Shown piece by piece: positions 10,845 to 16,513 of a DNA stretch of 64,000 bases. The DNA is taken from assembly GCF_054482525.1 (NCBI RefSeq), contig NZ_CM137006.1, one strand, 5' to 3'. The notes beneath the pieces are model-generated. The model saw only the letters and a program-made list of their open reading frames with translations. It had not been told where the DNA came from and made no database searches. Position numbers and translations under genes: made by a program. How positions within the stretch are numbered: the first letter of the stretch is position 1; the number at the start of each line of letters is the position of its first letter.

Positions 10845-10999
10845 TGGAGGAATTATGAAACACTATCGGGAATCGTCTGAATGGCGGGCACATTTGCGAG
10901 CACGCATCCAGTAATAACACATGAAACTATTTTATCTACGCGTTAGCGATAGACTACGTGCATGGCGAAAGGAGGTAAGCCGATGATTTCAGCGGGACG

Positions 11000-11145
11000 C
11001 TGAAACGGGAAAGCCCCTCCCGAGGAAGGGGCCATAAATAAGGAAAGGGTCATGATGAAGCTACTCATCATCGTGGTGCTCTTAGTCATTAGCTACCCAG
11101 CATACTAAGACTACCAGGGCGGGGGAAACCCCGCTCTACCCTCAC
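11000..11145 (-). ncRNA. sibB: Sib-family antisense sRNA (antitoxin) overlapping ibsB; boundaries approximate
   Basis: A minus-strand promoter-like element lies downstream of the ibs stop (TTGACA as reverse complement of 11174-11179; weak -10 near 11151-11156). A minus-strand hairpin followed by a U-rich tract lies near 11000-11040. The extent is inferred, not mapped. Confidence 0.4.
11052..11108 (+). CDS. ibsB: Ibs-family type I toxin, 18-aa hydrophobic peptide (MMKLLIIVVLLVISYPAY)
   Basis: Hand-translated ORF preceded by the SD-like AGGAAAGGG. The peptide matches the Ibs toxin family. The A/B assignment is from memory of the K-12 peptides and the copy nearest mdtA. Confidence 0.75.
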   Translation: MMKLLIIVVLLVISYPAY

Positions 11146-11329
11146 TCCTGAAAGTATGCCTTCACGATAAGATTGTCAATCTGCAGGCTTTGCAGTCTGC
11201 GATCCTGCCAGCAAATATTCTTTGCGAGACGTTACGCAATAATCACACTGGAAACTATTTTATCCGCAAGTCAGCGATAGACTGCATACAGGGCGAAAGG
11301 AGGTAAGCCGACGATTTCAGCGGGACGCT

Positions 11330-11480
11330 GAAACGGGAAACCCTCTCCCGGAGAAGAGGGCTTTTAATAAGGAAAGGGTTATGATGAAGCACGTCATCAT
11401 ACTGGTGATACTCTTAGTGATTAGCTTCCAGGCTTACTAAGAACACCAGGGGGAGGGGGAAACCTCTCCCTAACCCTCAC
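11330..11480 (-). ncRNA. sibA: Sib-family antisense sRNA (antitoxin) overlapping ibsA; boundaries approximate
   Basis: Same architecture as the first unit: minus-strand -35-like TTGACA (reverse complement of 11509-11514) and the hairpin CCCTCT...AGAGGG at ~11341-11360. Confidence 0.4.
11381..11440 (+). CDS. ibsA: Ibs-family type I toxin, 19-aa hydrophobic peptide (MMKHVIILVILLVISFQAY)
   Basis: Hand-translated ORF in the second repeat unit, with an SD-like GGAAAGGG upstream. Confidence 0.75.
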   Translation: MMKHVIILVILLVISFQAY

Positions 11481-11660
11481 TCCTGAAATTATGTCACTCC
11501 GCCCTTAGTGTCAATCGACGGCTCTCCGTTCTTGCGAGGCGAATAGCAAAATTTTCTGCGCCGCCGGGCCTAATTCTGAAAGTTTCTTCGTTTGCTCTTA
11601 TTTCATTGTTGCAGTCGGTATGATACCGGACCTCGATAATTCTCTAAGAAAGGATTTCTT

Positions 11661-12320
11661 ATGAGCGAACAAATCACGTTTGCCACCAGCGATTTTGCCA
11701 GTAACCCGGAACCACGTTGCCCCTGCATTTTGCTGCTGGATGTTTCTGGCTCGATGAGCGGCAGACCTATTAATGAACTTAATGCCGGATTGGTTACCTT
11801 TCGCGATGAGCTGCTTGCCGACCCGCTGGCCTTAAAAAGAGTGGAACTCGGTATTGTGACGTTCGGCCCGGTGCATGTGGAACAACCATTTACCAGCGCC
11901 GCTAATTTTTTCCCGCCCATCCTGTTTGCCCAGGGCGATACACCAATGGGCGCCGCCATTACCAAAGCCCTGGATATGGTTGAGGAGCGCAAACGTGAGT
12001 ATCGCGCCAATGGTATTTCCTATTATCGTCCGTGGATTTTCCTGATCACTGATGGCGCACCAACCGATGAGTGGCAGGCTGCCGCCAACAAAGTGTTTCA
12101 GGGGGAAGAAGATAAGAAGTTTGCCTTCTTTTCCATCGGTGTTCAGGGGGCGGATATGAAGACTTTGGCACAAATCAGCGTTCGTCAGCCTTTGCCACTG
12201 CAGGGATTACAATTCCGTGAACTGTTTAGCTGGTTATCCAGTTCGCTGCGTTCGGTTTCCCGCTCCACGCCGGGAACTGAAGTTGTGCTGGAAGCGCCAA
12301 AAGGCTGGACGTCAGTGTGA
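11661..12320 (+). CDS. yegL: von Willebrand factor A (VWA) domain protein, TerY-like
   Basis: 219-aa ORF with a MIDAS-type motif ([11 protein letters not shown]) and downstream ...TPMGAAI... / ...LITDGAPTD..., typical of VWA domains. Its stop overlaps the start of the next gene. Confidence 0.85.
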
Positions 12321-13078
12321 GCTGGCGTCTGGTCTATGCATCAACCGTTGGAACGTCGCACATCAGCGCGGACTTGCCTTGCCAGGATGCCTGCCAGATG
12401 CAGGTTGCCTGGTTAAATGACCAGCAGCCATTATTGTCGGTATTTGTCGCTGATGGCGCAGGCAGTGTCTCGCAGGGTGGCGAAGGCGCGATGCTCGCCG
12501 TCAATGAAGCGATGGCTTATATGTCGCAAAAAGTGCAGGGCGGGGAATTGGGGCTTAATGATGTCCTCGCCACGGATATTGTGCTGACCATTCGTCAGCG
12601 ACTTTTTGCCGAGGCAGAGGCCAAAGAATTAGCGGTTCGCGATTTTGCCTGCACATTTCTGGGACTGATTTCATCGCCTGACGGCACCTTGATTATGCAG
12701 ATTGGCGATGGCGGCGTGGTGGTAGATTTGGGTCACGGTCTGCAATTGCCTCTCACGCCGATGGTGGGTGAATATGCCAATATGACGCACTTCATTACCG
12801 ACGAAGATGCCGTTTCCAGACTGGAAACTTACACCAGTACTGAGCGTGCGCATAAAGTTGCAGCATTTACGGATGGTATTCAGAGGCTGGCGTTAAATAT
12901 GTTGAATAATTCTCCGCATGTGCCTTTTTTTACCCCGTTTTTCAATGGACTGGCGTCAGCAACGCAGGAACAACTCGATTTATTACCTGAATTGTTAAAG
13001 CAGTTTTTGTCCGGCCCGGCGGTAAACGAGCGTACCGATGATGATAAAACGTTGGCACTGGCGCTGTGGTTACCATGA
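12317..13078 (+). CDS. yegK: PP2C-family serine/threonine protein phosphatase
   Basis: 253-aa ORF with a GTG start overlapping the yegL stop (GTGA). PP2C metal-binding motifs [15 protein letters not shown] and ...FTDGIQ... are present. Confidence 0.85.
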
Positions 13079-15015
13079 AACCCACTTTATATACTGCTAC
13101 TGGTGAGTGCGTTACGCCAGGCTGTGAACTGGGCAAAGGTGGCGAAGGCGCGGTTTATGATATCGAGGAGTTTGTCGATAGCGTCGCCAAGATTTATCAC
13201 ACGCCGCCACCCGCCTTAAAACAGGACAAACTTGCCTTTATGGCTGCGACAGCTGATGCGCAGTTGCTGAATTATGTCGCCTGGCCGCAGGCAACGCTTC
13301 ACGGTGGACGAGGCGGAAAAGTTATCGGTTTTATGATGCCAAAAGTTTCTGGTAAAGAACCGATTCATATGATCTATAGCCCGGCACATCGTCGCCAGAG
13401 TTACCCTCATTGTGCGTGGGATTTTCTACTCTATGTTGCGCGCAATATTGCGTCATCTTTTGCTACGGTTCACGAGCACGGGCATGTCGTGGGTGACGTA
13501 AACCAGAACAGCTTTATGGTAGGCCGTGACAGCAAAGTGGTATTGATTGATAGCGACTCCTTTCAGATTAACGCCAATGGAACGCTGCATTTATGCGAAG
13601 TCGGCGTGTCGCATTTTACGCCGCCAGAGCTGCAAACATTGCCATCATTTGTCGGCTTTGAACGCACCGCGAATCACGATAATTTTGGCCTTGCGTTGCT
13701 GATTTTTCACGTCTTGTTTGGTGGTCGGCATCCTTATTCCGGTGTACCGCTTATCTCTGATGCGGGTAATGCGCTGGAGACGGATATTGCCCATTTCCGT
13801 TATGCCTACGCGTCAGATAATCAGCGACGTGGTTTAAAACCGCCGCCACGATCGATACCGCTGTCGATGTTACCGGGCGATGTTGAAGCCATGTTTCAGC
13901 AGGCATTCACGGAAAGTGGCGTGGCAACCGGGCGTCCGACGGCAAAAGCGTGGGTATCAGCACTGGATTCTCTACGCCAACAGTTAAAGAAATGTACCGT
14001 TTCGGCAATGCATGTTTATCCTGCTCATTTGACCGACTGCCCGTGGTGTACGCTGGATAATCAAGGCGTTATCTATTTTATTGATCTCGGCGAAGAGGTC
14101 ATTACCACCAGTGGTGATTTTGTGCTGGCGAAAGTCTGGGCGATGGTGATGGCGTCAGTAGCACCGCCAGCATTGCAATTGCCATTACCCGATCATTTCC
14201 AACCGACTGGCCGGCCGCTTCCTTTAGGCCTGTTACGGCGCGAATACATCATTCTGATTGAGATCGCACTGTCAGCTTTATCGCTGTTGCTTTGCGGTCT
14301 TCAGGCAGAACCGCGTTATATTATTTTGGTTCCTGTGCTGGCGGCTATCTGGATTATTGGCAGTCTGACAAGCAAAGCTTATAAAGCAGAAATCCAGCAA
14401 CGCCGTGAGGCATTTAATCGCGCGAAAATGGACTATGACCATTTAGTCAGCCAGATCCAGCAGGTGGGCGGGCTGGAAGGTTTTATCGCCAAACGGACGA
14501 TGCTCGAAAAAATGAAGGACGAAATGCTCGGGTTACCGGAAGAAGAAAAACGTGCTCTGGCAGCACTTCACGACACCGCAAGGGAACGGCAGAAGCAGAA
14601 GTTTCTGGAGGGATTTTTTATTGATGTTGCCTCTATTCCCGGCGTTGGCCCTGCGCGTAAAGCGGCGTTACGGTCCTTTGGTATTGAAACAGCAGCGGAT
14701 GTTACCCGTCGTGGGGTTAAGCAAGTGAAAGGGTTTGGTGATCATCTGACCCAGGCGGTTATCGACTGGAAAGCGAGTTGCGAACGCCGTTTTGTGTTCA
14801 GGCCGAACGAAGCGGTAACGCCTGCAGACAGACAAGCGGTAATGGCAAAAATGACCGCCAAACGACATCGGCTGGAATCGGCGTTGACTGTCGGCGCGAC
14901 AGAGTTGCAGCGATTCCGCCTTCATGCTCCAGCACGGACCATGCCGTTGATGGAACCGTTACGTCAGGCGGCAGAAAAACTGGCTCAGGCGCAGGCTGAT
15001 TTAAGCCGTTGCTGA
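13075..15015 (+). CDS. yegI: Hanks-type Ser/Thr protein kinase-like protein with a predicted membrane segment and C-terminal helix-hairpin-helix-like motifs
   Basis: The ATG at 13075 overlaps the yegK stop (ATGA); the ORF track uses an in-frame GTG at 13066. Kinase-like motifs: glycine loop LGKGGEGAVY, VAK lysine, catalytic loop HVVGDVNQNSF, LIDSDSF. Hydrophobic stretch ...IILIEIALSALSLLLCGL...ILVPVLAAIWIIGSL..., then HhH-like GVGPARKAALRSFG and VKGFGDHL. Confidence 0.85.
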   Translation: MKPTLYTATGECVTPGCELGKGGEGAVYDIEEFVDSVAKIYHTPPPALKQDKLAFMAATADAQLLNYVAWPQATLHGGRGGKVIGFMMPKVSGKEPIHMIYSPAHRRQSYPHCAWDFLLYVARNIASSFATVHEHGHVVGDVNQNSFMVGRDSKVVLIDSDSFQINANGTLHLCEVGVSHFTPPELQTLPSFVGFERTANHDNFGLALLIFHVLFGGRHPYSGVPLISDAGNALETDIAHFRYAYASDNQRRGLKPPPRSIPLSMLPGDVEAMFQQAFTESGVATGRPTAKAWVSALDSLRQQLKKCTVSAMHVYPAHLTDCPWCTLDNQGVIYFIDLGEEVITTSGDFVLAKVWAMVMASVAPPALQLPLPDHFQPTGRPLPLGLLRREYIILIEIALSALSLLLCGLQAEPRYIILVPVLAAIWIIGSLTSKAYKAEIQQRREAFNRAKMDYDHLVSQIQQVGGLEGFIAKRTMLEKMKDEMLGLPEEEKRALAALHDTARERQKQKFLEGFFIDVASIPGVGPARKAALRSFGIETAADVTRRGVKQVKGFGDHLTQAVIDWKASCERRFVFRPNEAVTPADRQAVMAKMTAKRHRLESALTVGATELQRFRLHAPARTMPLMEPLRQAAEKLAQAQADLSRC

Positions 15016-15027
15016 GCCAGTTTTCAA

Positions 15028-16380
15028 TTAACGAAACACCACTTCCGCCCAGCGTGCCAGCCCGGCGGTGACGGAGCCAAAGTCATCGCCACCTGCAATC
15101 GGAATGCCCGGCAACTGTTCTGTCAGCGCTTTTTTAATCAGCGGTGAACGGGCGCTACCGCCAGTTAGGTAGATAACGTCCGGTTTTTCCTGGGCGTTAT
15201 CCAGCGCCAGTTGCACCTGTTCCAGAATCCGCGCCAGTGGCTGGTTGAGGGCGCTTTCCAGCCCTTGCTGGCTAATCAGCGTAGCCAGTTCATCGCTGAT
15301 AAACGGTAGTGAGGCGCGGGTTTCCGCTACGCTTGAAAGGGCGATTTTGCTCTCTTCTGCACTGCGCACCAGGCGATAGCTTAAACGCTGACGCCAGACT
15401 TTCTGTAACAGGGCCACTTTTTCCGGTTCGCGGGCATCGCGTACCAGATCGTTAAGCAGACGACCGTTGGCACTACTGTAGAAATCACTTTGCGCAGGTA
15501 CGTCGTTGATGGCAACCGCATTCCACCACGGCAGAATCGGCAGGGCGATGCCTTTTTCGGTTTCGCCACCCATGCCAAGTAACGGCATCAGGTTTTTAAA
15601 CGCCAGCGCGATATCCAGATCGTTACCACCAATACGGCAACCACTGTGACCCAGCAGGCTGGCTTCACGATCGAGACGCGAACGCCACTGCGGCCCCATC
15701 AGCAGCAATGAACAGTCAGTCGTACCACCGCCGATATCCACCACCAGCACCCGTTTTTCTTCCTGCAAGGTGGCTTCGTAATCCAGCCCAGCCGCGACCG
15801 GCTCGTACTGGAATACCACATCCTTAAACCCGGCACGCTTTGCCGCGCGTTCCAGAATCCCTTGCGCCTGGGTGTTTGCTTCATCGCCGCCCAGCCCCTG
15901 GAAGTTGATCGGGCGACCAATCACCGCCTGAGTAATCGCATCCGGCAGCTGCGCCTGCGCCTGCTGGCGAATGTGCAACATCATTGCGCAGACCAGATCC
16001 TCAAACAGCGCTACCTGCTGCGGTTTTAAGCCGCTGGCACCGAGGAATGATTTTGGTGATTTCACAAACCACACCTCTTCTGGATCATCAATGTACTGTG
16101 CCAGTGAGGAAAGACCGAACTGCACGCTTTTCGCCGTAACATCGATATCTTCTTCGCGGTTATAACGAATCGCCCGACGCAACAGCGCCTGCGTTTCATC
16201 GTCGTCTGCCGGAACATCATGATGGCGGTACAGCCATTCGCTTACCGCTTCACGCGTTGGCGCGCAAAGCATTGAAGGCAGCAGCGTGCTGTCGTTTTCC
16301 ATTTTCAGTAATTGCGGCTTACCGTCGCGCATGACCGCCACTGAACAGTTTGCTGTACCGTAATCAAAACCAATAAACAC
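15028..16380 (-). CDS. yegD: Hsp70/actin-fold ATPase family protein (DnaK-like, lacking the substrate-binding domain)
   Basis: The ORF track gives 471 aa. I place the start at a GTG (reverse complement of 16378-16380) giving 450 aa beginning FIGFDYGTANCSVAV, the Hsp70 phosphate-1 motif; later motifs VVDIGGGTTD and DVIYLTGGSARSPLI are present. Confidence 0.8.
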   Translation of the reverse strand: MFIGFDYGTANCSVAVMRDGKPQLLKMENDSTLLPSMLCAPTREAVSEWLYRHHDVPADDDETQALLRRAIRYNREEDIDVTAKSVQFGLSSLAQYIDDPEEVWFVKSPKSFLGASGLKPQQVALFEDLVCAMMLHIRQQAQAQLPDAITQAVIGRPINFQGLGGDEANTQAQGILERAAKRAGFKDVVFQYEPVAAGLDYEATLQEEKRVLVVDIGGGTTDCSLLLMGPQWRSRLDREASLLGHSGCRIGGNDLDIALAFKNLMPLLGMGGETEKGIALPILPWWNAVAINDVPAQSDFYSSANGRLLNDLVRDAREPEKVALLQKVWRQRLSYRLVRSAEESKIALSSVAETRASLPFISDELATLISQQGLESALNQPLARILEQVQLALDNAQEKPDVIYLTGGSARSPLIKKALTEQLPGIPIAGGDDFGSVTAGLARWAEVVFR

Positions 16381-16513
16381 GAAATAATCCCCATGCCGGT
16401 GAAGAAGGGGCGTGACTTTAGCGAAATGTTGCCGTCGCGACAACCGGAATATGAAAGCAAAGCGTAGCGTCTGAATAACGTTTATGCTGAAAGCGGATTA
16501 ACAAGGAGATGCG

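Follow-up and report, generated by a model that had tools for sequence, protein, structure and literature searches.

The Escherichia coli genes yegL, pphC (also called yegK) and yegI encode a VWA protein, a phosphatase and a kinase, and they raise a simple question: what is this small phosphorylation circuit for? They are examined here in a stretch of 64,000 nucleotides from contig NZ_CM137006.1 (NCBI RefSeq assembly GCF_054482525.1), called the window below, with positions counted from its first letter. The window is 100% identical to the chromosome of E. coli PCN033, and in RefSeq the three genes appear there as yegL (vWA domain-containing protein), pphC (protein-serine/threonine phosphatase) and yegI (listed as protein kinase YegI). 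It is near certain that the locus is the E. coli operon yegL-pphC(yegK)-yegI, and just as near certain that its three genes form a phospho-switch cassette of the TerY-P type, self-contained and horizontally mobile. Its purpose is answered with less assurance: a role in defence against phages or other foreign DNA is the leading hypothesis, given an even chance or somewhat less.

E. coli has very few eukaryotic-type Ser/Thr kinases, and the enzymology of YegI has been worked out, yet no substrate, signal or phenotype is known for the kinase. At its descriptive core the locus is already known; its biological role is not. The descriptive part is not new because the enzymology, the membrane topology, the ATGA overlap of pphC with yegI and the yegJ polymorphism have been published (Rajagopalan, Nagle and Dworkin, J Bacteriol 2018; Rajagopalan and Dworkin, FEBS Lett 2020). 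The literature searched, up to 2026, gives no physiological role for the E. coli cassette, in agreement with what a first-pass annotation of this DNA had said of the chromosomal copy. The additions to the published picture concern the kinase YegI and its partners: a triad missed by PADLOC that matches its counterparts in tellurite-resistance (ter) clusters, an invariant Cys/His site, and a tail with helix-hairpin-helix (HhH) motifs.

Gene order and the atypical kinase YegI

All three genes are read on the plus strand. yegL (11661-12320) encodes a TerY-type VWA protein of 219 residues with a complete metal ion-dependent adhesion site (MIDAS), as given by the open reading frame list, Pfam and RefSeq; pphC (12317-13078) begins with GTG and encodes a PP2C-type Ser/Thr phosphatase of 253 residues, placed by Pfam PP2C_2; yegI (13075-15015), taken from the open reading frame list, encodes a kinase of 646 residues counted from its ATG. 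Adjacent genes overlap by 4 nucleotides at both junctions. The TGA stop of yegL shares the letters GTGA (12317-12320) with the GTG start of pphC, and the TGA stop of pphC shares ATGA (13075-13078) with the ATG start of yegI. Both overlaps can be read directly from the plus strand, as the first-pass annotation had reported. The K-12 annotation has the identical yegL/pphC overlap. The ATGA overlap has been described for REL606 and O157:H7, and in K-12 the yegJ gene separates pphC from yegI (Rajagopalan and Dworkin). From the 4-nucleotide overlaps we infer that the triad is probably co-transcribed and translationally coupled.

The first two proteins are placed by standard models. YegL matches Pfam VWA at E 1.6e-9, and at least 95% of 73 family members retain its MIDAS residues D27, S29, S31 and T94 together with the conserved Asp of the TDG motif. 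PphC matches PP2C_2 over residues 11-220 at E 7.2e-53 and is an active PP2C phosphatase that dephosphorylates YegI (Rajagopalan and Dworkin; 10.1101/303594, 10.1101/819920). The earlier reading of the two genes, as a MIDAS-containing VWA protein and a PP2C phosphatase, is upheld by these matches and by the published activity. YegL also ends in a Ser/Thr-rich tail (residues 192-205, window 12236-12275) that is conserved from E. coli to Planctomycetota; this tail is a candidate phospho-acceptor or docking segment.

The third protein is the atypical one. A kinase domain of the Hanks type, or eukaryotic protein kinase (ePK) fold, spans roughly residues 1-300 of YegI (13075-13974, plus strand), with the Gly loop, K39, D141 in the loop VGDVNQNS, and D159-S-D161. 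The Gly loop reads ELGKGGEG (residues 18-25), VAK occupies residues 37-39, and the catalytic loop HVVGDVNQNSF covers residues 137-147; the first-pass annotation had recognised the loop, the VAK Lys and the unusual catalytic sequence, and each is in place. G20, G22, G23, K39, D141 and D159 are invariant in 77 sequences. YegI has VGD for HRD and D-S/C-D for DFG, and the canonical HRD and DFG motifs were not found. Pfam gives YegI no Pkinase match even at E <= 10, the sole match being HHH_5 at 0.0025, and the precomputed Pkinase matches of two YegI homologues are only 'faint'.

Other evidence supports the kinase. In a search with a profile built from 77 members of the YegI family, human TTK is matched at 1e-5, and PknE of M. 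tuberculosis at 0.017. PADLOC and NCBIfam models give weak matches to the kinase core: LanL (a lanthionine-synthetase kinase domain) at 3.3e-6, PD-T4-6 at 1.8e-4 and Mokosh MkoA at 5.3e-4. The PD-T4-6 and MkoA matches, both to kinase-based anti-phage systems, are marginal and cover about 100-125 residues of the core, and the architectures and partner genes of these two systems are unrelated to yegL-pphC-yegI. The AlphaFold model of YegI, made with 77 diverse sequences, has a pLDDT value (predicted local distance difference test) of 89.9 in the kinase core, against 67.8 in an earlier run with 24 close homologues. YegI is taken as a kinase despite the Pfam Pkinase failure because structure, family profile and published biochemistry agree: it has a true Hanks-type (two-lobed ePK) fold that standard sequence models miss. 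The profile search proposed at first pass as a check on the triad accordingly divides, with VWA and PP2C models matching and the Pkinase model failing; taken literally, this failure is one of the refuting outcomes named at first pass, but it is overridden by the same three lines of evidence.

The catalytic loop varies within the family. Five residues beyond the catalytic Asp, 46 of 64 family members have the canonical Asn (usual loop GDVNQGN), and E. coli has Ser. The 'NS' loop (YegI residues 141-147, window 13495-13515) is limited to Escherichia and its closest relatives; since 46 of the 64 members keep the canonical Asn, it is a derived feature of this clade. A separate change is found in PCN033, where YegI residue 17 (13123-13125) is Cys and at least 90% of the family has Arg. 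This R17C change lies directly before the Gly-rich loop and sets the PCN033 protein apart from the published alleles; other E. coli YegI alleles read GRELG in this region.

In vitro, YegI autophosphorylates on serines, prefers Mn and follows second-order kinetics (10.1101/303594, 10.1101/819920). It activates itself by trans-autophosphorylation of activation-loop serines, and PphC removes the phosphates; K39D and D141N abolish its activity, and changing DSD to DFG inactivates it (Rajagopalan and Dworkin). PhoA-LacZ mapping has shown that YegI passes the inner membrane twice and that both termini are cytoplasmic (Rajagopalan and Dworkin). The genes of the window are those of the published operon: the proteins are 96-99% identical to the K-12 copies, the arrangement is that of REL606 and O157:H7 without yegJ, and the VGD and DSD loops, the Mn preference, the two-pass topology and the action of PphC on YegI all apply. 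The same papers say nothing on TerY, HhH motifs, the Cys/His site, phages or a role of YegL (10.1101/303594, 10.1101/819920). Compared with bacterial Hanks-type Ser/Thr kinases that have a PP2C partner, such as the PknB/PstP and PrkC/PrpC pairs, YegI has no extracellular sensor (no PASTA-like module) and only a 5-residue loop between its membrane helices, its termini being cytoplasmic. It also differs from them in VGD/DSD for HRD/DFG, in lacking a Pfam Pkinase match, in its constant VWA partner and in its C-terminal HhH motifs.

Directly after the kinase domain lies a candidate zinc-binding knuckle formed by C307, H313, C322 and C325 (13993-14049, plus strand), placed by alignment and AlphaFold. 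The four residues are invariant in 64 of 64 and in 77 of 77 family members, AlphaFold predicts a beta hairpin at the site (residues 304-316), and the kinase of the ter-cluster TerY-P triad has a Cys cluster at the equivalent position. A zinc knuckle is the likely identity of the site. Downstream, a membrane hairpin (14239-14382, plus strand) is defined by hydropathy, AlphaFold and the published topology, and consists of two helices, at about residues 389-409 and 415-436, with the 5-residue loop QAEPR between them. Hydropathy peaks around residues 400 and 424, where AlphaFold has helices too; the hydrophobic segment seen at first pass behind the kinase corresponds to these two segments.

The remainder of YegI is cytoplasmic. 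AlphaFold predicts a helical, coiled-coil-like stalk at about residues 437-512 (14383-14610, plus strand), its helices running over residues 418-465, 467-485 and 487-511 with pLDDT 88-95. Next come two putative HhH motifs within residues 515-572 (14617-14790, plus strand), a candidate DNA-binding module assigned through Pfam and a PDB profile search; the motifs read GVGPARKAALRSFG (residues 523-536) and VKGFGDHL (551-558). HHH_5 reaches 0.0025 on the whole protein and 1e-4 on the excised segment; of 38 family members, 6 have a score of 1e-3 or better and 13 a score of 0.1 or better. In the PDB profile search with the YegI C-terminus the top matches are all HhH elements, at marginal E-values of 0.013-0.6, among them Pol IV (0.013), REV1, eL32 and the RAD51D N-terminal domain (0.037); a plain sequence search of the C-terminal 156 residues against the PDB gave marginal matches only. 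AlphaFold places helix-loop-helix pairs at residues 526-549 and 556-571. Both HhH-like motifs named at first pass are thus present, with HHH_5 and PDB profile matches that are weak but consistent. A single long helix (residues 583-645, pLDDT 84-96 in AlphaFold) and the stop codon complete the gene (14821-15015, plus strand). Beyond the Cys/His site the model is entirely helical, comprising membrane hairpin, stalk, HhH motifs and long helix, and no OB fold was found.

Kinship with TerY-P triads and spread of the cassette

The relation to TerY-P was examined by BLASTP against the triad in the ter cluster of the IncHI2 plasmid pSCE516-1. YegL matches three ter-cluster TerY VWA proteins with 29-35% identity (E 3e-25 to 4e-17), and the non-self plasmid matches listed for it come from ter-bearing plasmids, where they are VWA or 'TerY-C' proteins. 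The other two matches are weak: PphC is 24% identical to the ter PP2C protein over 243 residues (E 8e-5), and YegI residues 202-338, comprising the C-lobe and the Cys cluster, are 23% identical to the ter kinase (E 1e-4). Both are reciprocal, component by component, and YegI shares with the ter kinase an RPTAxxW...AL motif followed by the Cys cluster. Since each of the three proteins matches its ter-cluster counterpart, the architecture is that of TerY-P, a triad described by Anantharaman, Iyer and Aravind (2012, as cited in later papers).

The likeness is one of organization. Both consist of an adjacent, same-strand set of TerY-type VWA protein, PP2C phosphatase and Ser/Thr kinase with a Cys cluster after the kinase; placement in defence islands or on mobile elements is a further, suggestive point of likeness for copies outside E. 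coli. The kinase tail differs. YegI continues into a membrane hairpin, followed by a coiled coil and two HhH motifs, whereas an OB fold is described for the defence-validated version (Gao et al. 2020) and nothing but a zinc ribbon for the version linked to CoCoNuT. The sizes of the yegL-pphC-yegI products are nearly fixed, at about 219, 253 and 646 residues, and the cassette is core in E. coli. The match to TerY-P drawn in the first-pass annotation survives as component-wise homology to the ter triad; it is not returned as a TerY-P call by PADLOC, and the C-terminus of the kinase differs from the validated defence version.

A DUF4236 protein recurs beside triads of the yegL-pphC-yegI type (loci L009 and L010, 3962-5182; L093, 7294-8376; L047, 1441-2364; L097, 2813-4021). 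The IncHI2 ter cluster with the canonical TerY-P triad likewise encodes a DUF4236 protein, just upstream of terW.

When one genome per species was scanned, 88 loci were obtained, from Escherichia, Klebsiella, Burkholderiales, Pseudomonas, Chromatium, Methylococcaceae, Thiotrichales, Desulfobacterota, Planctomycetota, Spirulina, Lentisphaerae and the archaeon Methanoregula. Klebsiella and many Burkholderiales have YegI homologues of equal length with about 60% identity. The C-terminal module of YegI matches 1471 clusters (50% identity level) at E <= 1e-10 and nearly always stands behind some 300 residues, truncated fragments aside. The order VWA-PP2C-kinase, adjacent and on the same strand, is found in about 72 of the 74 loci with upstream sequence, and about 70 species across several phyla (including Proteobacteria, Planctomycetota, Cyanobacteria, Lentisphaerae and archaea), as well as plasmids, keep it.

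This constancy bears directly on whether the three genes belong together at all. PphC and YegI might be a general Ser/Thr pair with many substrates, lying next to an unrelated VWA protein; the published work covers the PphC-YegI pair alone, and E. coli is known to have about 100 Ser/Thr phosphoproteins (10.1101/819920). Yet a VWA gene sits directly upstream on the same strand in about 72 of 74 loci across phyla and in archaea, and the same three-part layout recurs in the ter-cluster and defence TerY-P triads. YegL is moreover the most conserved of the three proteins, the E. coli and Planctomycetota versions matching at E 1e-78, against about 1e-35 for PphC. Mere adjacency is accordingly a very improbable explanation.

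No universal fourth gene was found in the compared loci, and several candidates were rejected. The Hsp70-like YegD accompanies the cassette only in Escherichia loci. Some genes recur downstream in single lineages: a GspE-like ATPase in Planctomycetota, and in Methanoregula an RNase II/R-like gene, an ABC transporter and RecQ. They were judged to reflect lineage synteny and not partnership. An upstream gene with a staphylococcal-nuclease (SNase) domain, together with an open reading frame of 69-70 residues, was dismissed as a universal effector, being restricted to a Burkholderiales subclade and one Pirellula locus. There, the SNase-domain gene shares the strand of the VWA gene and stands just upstream of it, in most loci with the 69-70-residue frame (L002, 5719-6474; L009 and L010, 7700-8501; L011, 1487-2288; also L016, L017, L028, L050 and L066); it is absent from E. 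coli, and could be an accessory effector.

Several copies are located on mobile elements. The cassette occurs on Pseudomonas megaplasmids and, between transposases, on a Deinococcus plasmid, and other copies were located within a Tn7-like element and an integrase island. The methanogenic archaeon Methanoregula has complete cassettes (L055, L056, L071 and L075), with kinases 33-35% identical to YegI and conserved housekeeping flanks; because these copies are complete, the cassette has crossed between domains of life.

Defence genes are frequent neighbours. Six of nine Pfam-annotated loci outside Escherichia have clear defence genes within 10 kb: BrxR with Wadjet JetB; AbiH with a KAP NTPase; GmrSD with type I restriction and SymE; type I restriction with Mrr; ScoMcrA/NOV_C with PLD; and type I restriction with HNH. 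When PADLOC was applied to the nearest neighbours in 15 further proteobacterial loci, strong matches were obtained for 6 of 29 proteins in 5 of the 15 loci (GajA 3e-215, JetA 3e-184, PDC-S35/TIR 3e-71, PDC-M72A, PDC-S26 and WYL). The resulting enrichment of the cassette near defence genes is suggestive.

Defence, stress signalling or a silent remnant

Published TerY-P triads defend against T7-like phages, and most infected cells survive (Gao et al. 2020; also shown in Pseudomonas aeruginosa), which bears out the first-pass remark that such triads are among the reported anti-phage systems. Given the context evidence, a defence function of the yegL-pphC-yegI cassette is a reasonable but unproven hypothesis, and by analogy with the validated triads the defence would probably be non-abortive and aimed at T7-like podophages. 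A possible sequence of events can be outlined. PphC would keep YegI switched off until nucleic acid (e.g. phage or other incoming DNA) reaches the cytoplasmic face of the inner membrane, where the HhH modules would bind it and gather YegI molecules. Clustering would drive trans-autophosphorylation, and active YegI might then phosphorylate YegL, for which the conserved Ser-rich tail is the candidate site, and/or phage or host proteins. The MIDAS of YegL could serve as a metal-dependent adaptor that recruits the target. In its full form, the proposal is that the cassette represents an unrecognised class of TerY-P immunity, with a membrane kinase, HhH sensing of entering nucleic acid and a non-abortive phosphorylation block, and core in E. 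coli; in this specific combination it is tentative and, on present evidence, doubtful.

Several observations weigh against this reading. The locus has a fixed site between mdtA/ibs and yegD and was matched in 5423 of 5426 complete E. coli genomes; the E. coli copy is thus core, lying neither in a defence island nor in a mobile element, and core status is unusual for a defence system. Its base composition shows no sign of foreign origin (GC 49-55%, like the flanks). In 1934 of the 5426 genomes (36%), K-12 included, yegJ lies on the opposite strand between pphC and yegI; since only this 36% has a split operon, the overlapping arrangement of the window is the majority form. Expression of the YegI/PphC pathway is reported to be very low, with no known inducing condition (10.1101/819920; a 2026 paper), and the 2026 paper still terms the pathway uncharacterised and barely expressed. 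The promoter and terminator scan gave no signal above shuffled controls, and no consensus sigma-70 promoter was found by it upstream of yegL. In PADLOC-DB 2.0, none of the three proteins reaches E 0.01 with the TerY-P models, the best being the TerY model at 0.013 for YegL; YegL and PphC have no match at E <= 0.01 to any family of the database, and YegI has no match to any TerY-P kinase model. The defence-type neighbours amount overall to about 11 of 24 proteobacterial loci, a small sample without a matched random control, and the flanks in Planctomycetota and Methanoregula are conserved housekeeping genes. The HhH module is a candidate nucleic-acid binder by sequence, an assignment based on marginal E-values; phosphorylation of YegL by YegI is purely conjectural; and the literature to 2026 reports no phage or DNA phenotype for yegL-pphC-yegI.

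Part of this evidence would suit a housekeeping stress-signalling module that responds to endogenous DNA damage, to replication or segregation problems at the membrane, or to envelope or metal stress. Such a role matches the original idea of a 'metal-sensing phosphorylation switch' for TerY triads in ter clusters, and fits the homology to the ter-cluster triad, with DUF4236 neighbours in both. It also agrees with a core locus, fixed in E. coli and under purifying selection like its neighbours, and with the conserved housekeeping flanks seen in Planctomycetota, in Methanoregula and in one metagenomic locus. On a Pseudomonas megaplasmid the cassette adjoins a umuDC-like pair, and in E. coli (K-12) its neighbours include alkA and the Hsp70-like yegD. 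In a genome-wide screen, overproduction of YegL (on the strong-phenotype list) and of YegI (at least 5-fold) raised endogenous DNA damage (10.1101/354589), a phenotype that fits a link to DNA. However, the same list holds the neighbours MdtA and MdtB and many unrelated proteins (10.1101/354589), so that the phenotype is one of overproduction common to many of them; YegD is no conserved partner outside Escherichia, and no inducing stress condition is known. The patchy horizontal spread, the plasmid, transposon and island sites and the Gabija, Wadjet, restriction and TIR neighbours are better suited to an accessory defence module. We regard the stress-signalling account as rather unlikely.

The low expression might instead mean that the E. 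coli copy is a domesticated remnant of a mobile defence module, intact but effectively silent and with no current natural role. Besides very low or undetectable expression and the absence of a consensus promoter in the scan, this would accommodate the interruption by yegJ in 36% of genomes, the occasional disruptions (a split yegI in two Escherichia species genomes, IS150 in one strain) and the Cys of PCN033 at the nearly invariant Arg17. The pattern of selection points the other way. Relative to K-12, the ratio of nonsynonymous to synonymous substitution rates (dN/dS) is 0.025 for yegL (the most constrained of the three), 0.22 for pphC and 0.09 for yegI, against 0.03 to 0.17 for flanking genes. 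With values of 0.025-0.22, like those of the flanking housekeeping genes, all three genes are under purifying selection and are not decaying; the selection is sustained across E. coli and also in comparison with E. whittamii. All catalytic and structural invariants are kept, the proteins are active in vitro as published, and expression differs among strains during epithelial-cell infection. A silent remnant is therefore improbable.

If the defence reading is true, it would assign a function to three 'y-genes' that practically every E. coli genome carries, add a core-genome immune system to the best-studied bacterium, and provide a tractable model for infection sensing and phosphorylation targets in TerY-P, both unsolved family-wide. 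It would also mean that the choice of K-12, with its operon split by yegJ, can hide native immunity. Under the specific TerY-P immunity proposal, K-12 and about one-third of strains would be natural variants with a split operon, and the split could explain why the system has gone unseen in standard laboratory phage work. If the stress-signalling account holds instead, the cassette would act in a stress response as a link between DNA events near the membrane and Ser/Thr signalling.

Strain variation and neighbouring genes

In K-12-type genomes, yegJ (K-12 locus L001, 3343-4067) alters both products: PphC in its last 2 residues, YegI in roughly its first 18. The PCN033 allele of the region (10900-16500) is unusual: identity of at least 99% is found in 3 of 5426 genomes, and most have 95-96%. 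The 5.6-kb query matches at a median of 3 places per genome because of the tandem Sib/Ibs repeat that it contains. Synonymous divergence of the region from K-12 is 0.10-0.24, with the top values in yegL and yegI. In two Escherichia species genomes (L013, 8671-10620; L014, 4500-6450) the yegI gene falls into two open reading frames, and one E. coli strain has IS150 within the region.

Upstream, the interval between mdtA and yegL contains two Sib antitoxin RNAs on the minus strand (11037-11179 and 11366-11514; Rfam RF00113, 142 and 150 bits), opposite the toxin genes ibsB and ibsA. Two Sib RNAs imply two tandem Ibs/Sib type I pairs; of the neighbours listed at first pass, the Hsp70-like gene is as described, and the single type I toxin-antitoxin pair has to be replaced by two. 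The Hsp70-like gene, yegD, is convergent and lies immediately 3' of yegI (15028-16380, minus strand; 450 residues in RefSeq). In K-12 it is reported to be strongly induced by overexpression of yegJ (a 2026 paper). The longest yegD open reading frame has 471 residues with a TTG start (15028-16443, minus strand) and reaches upstream of the 450-residue gene annotated in RefSeq.

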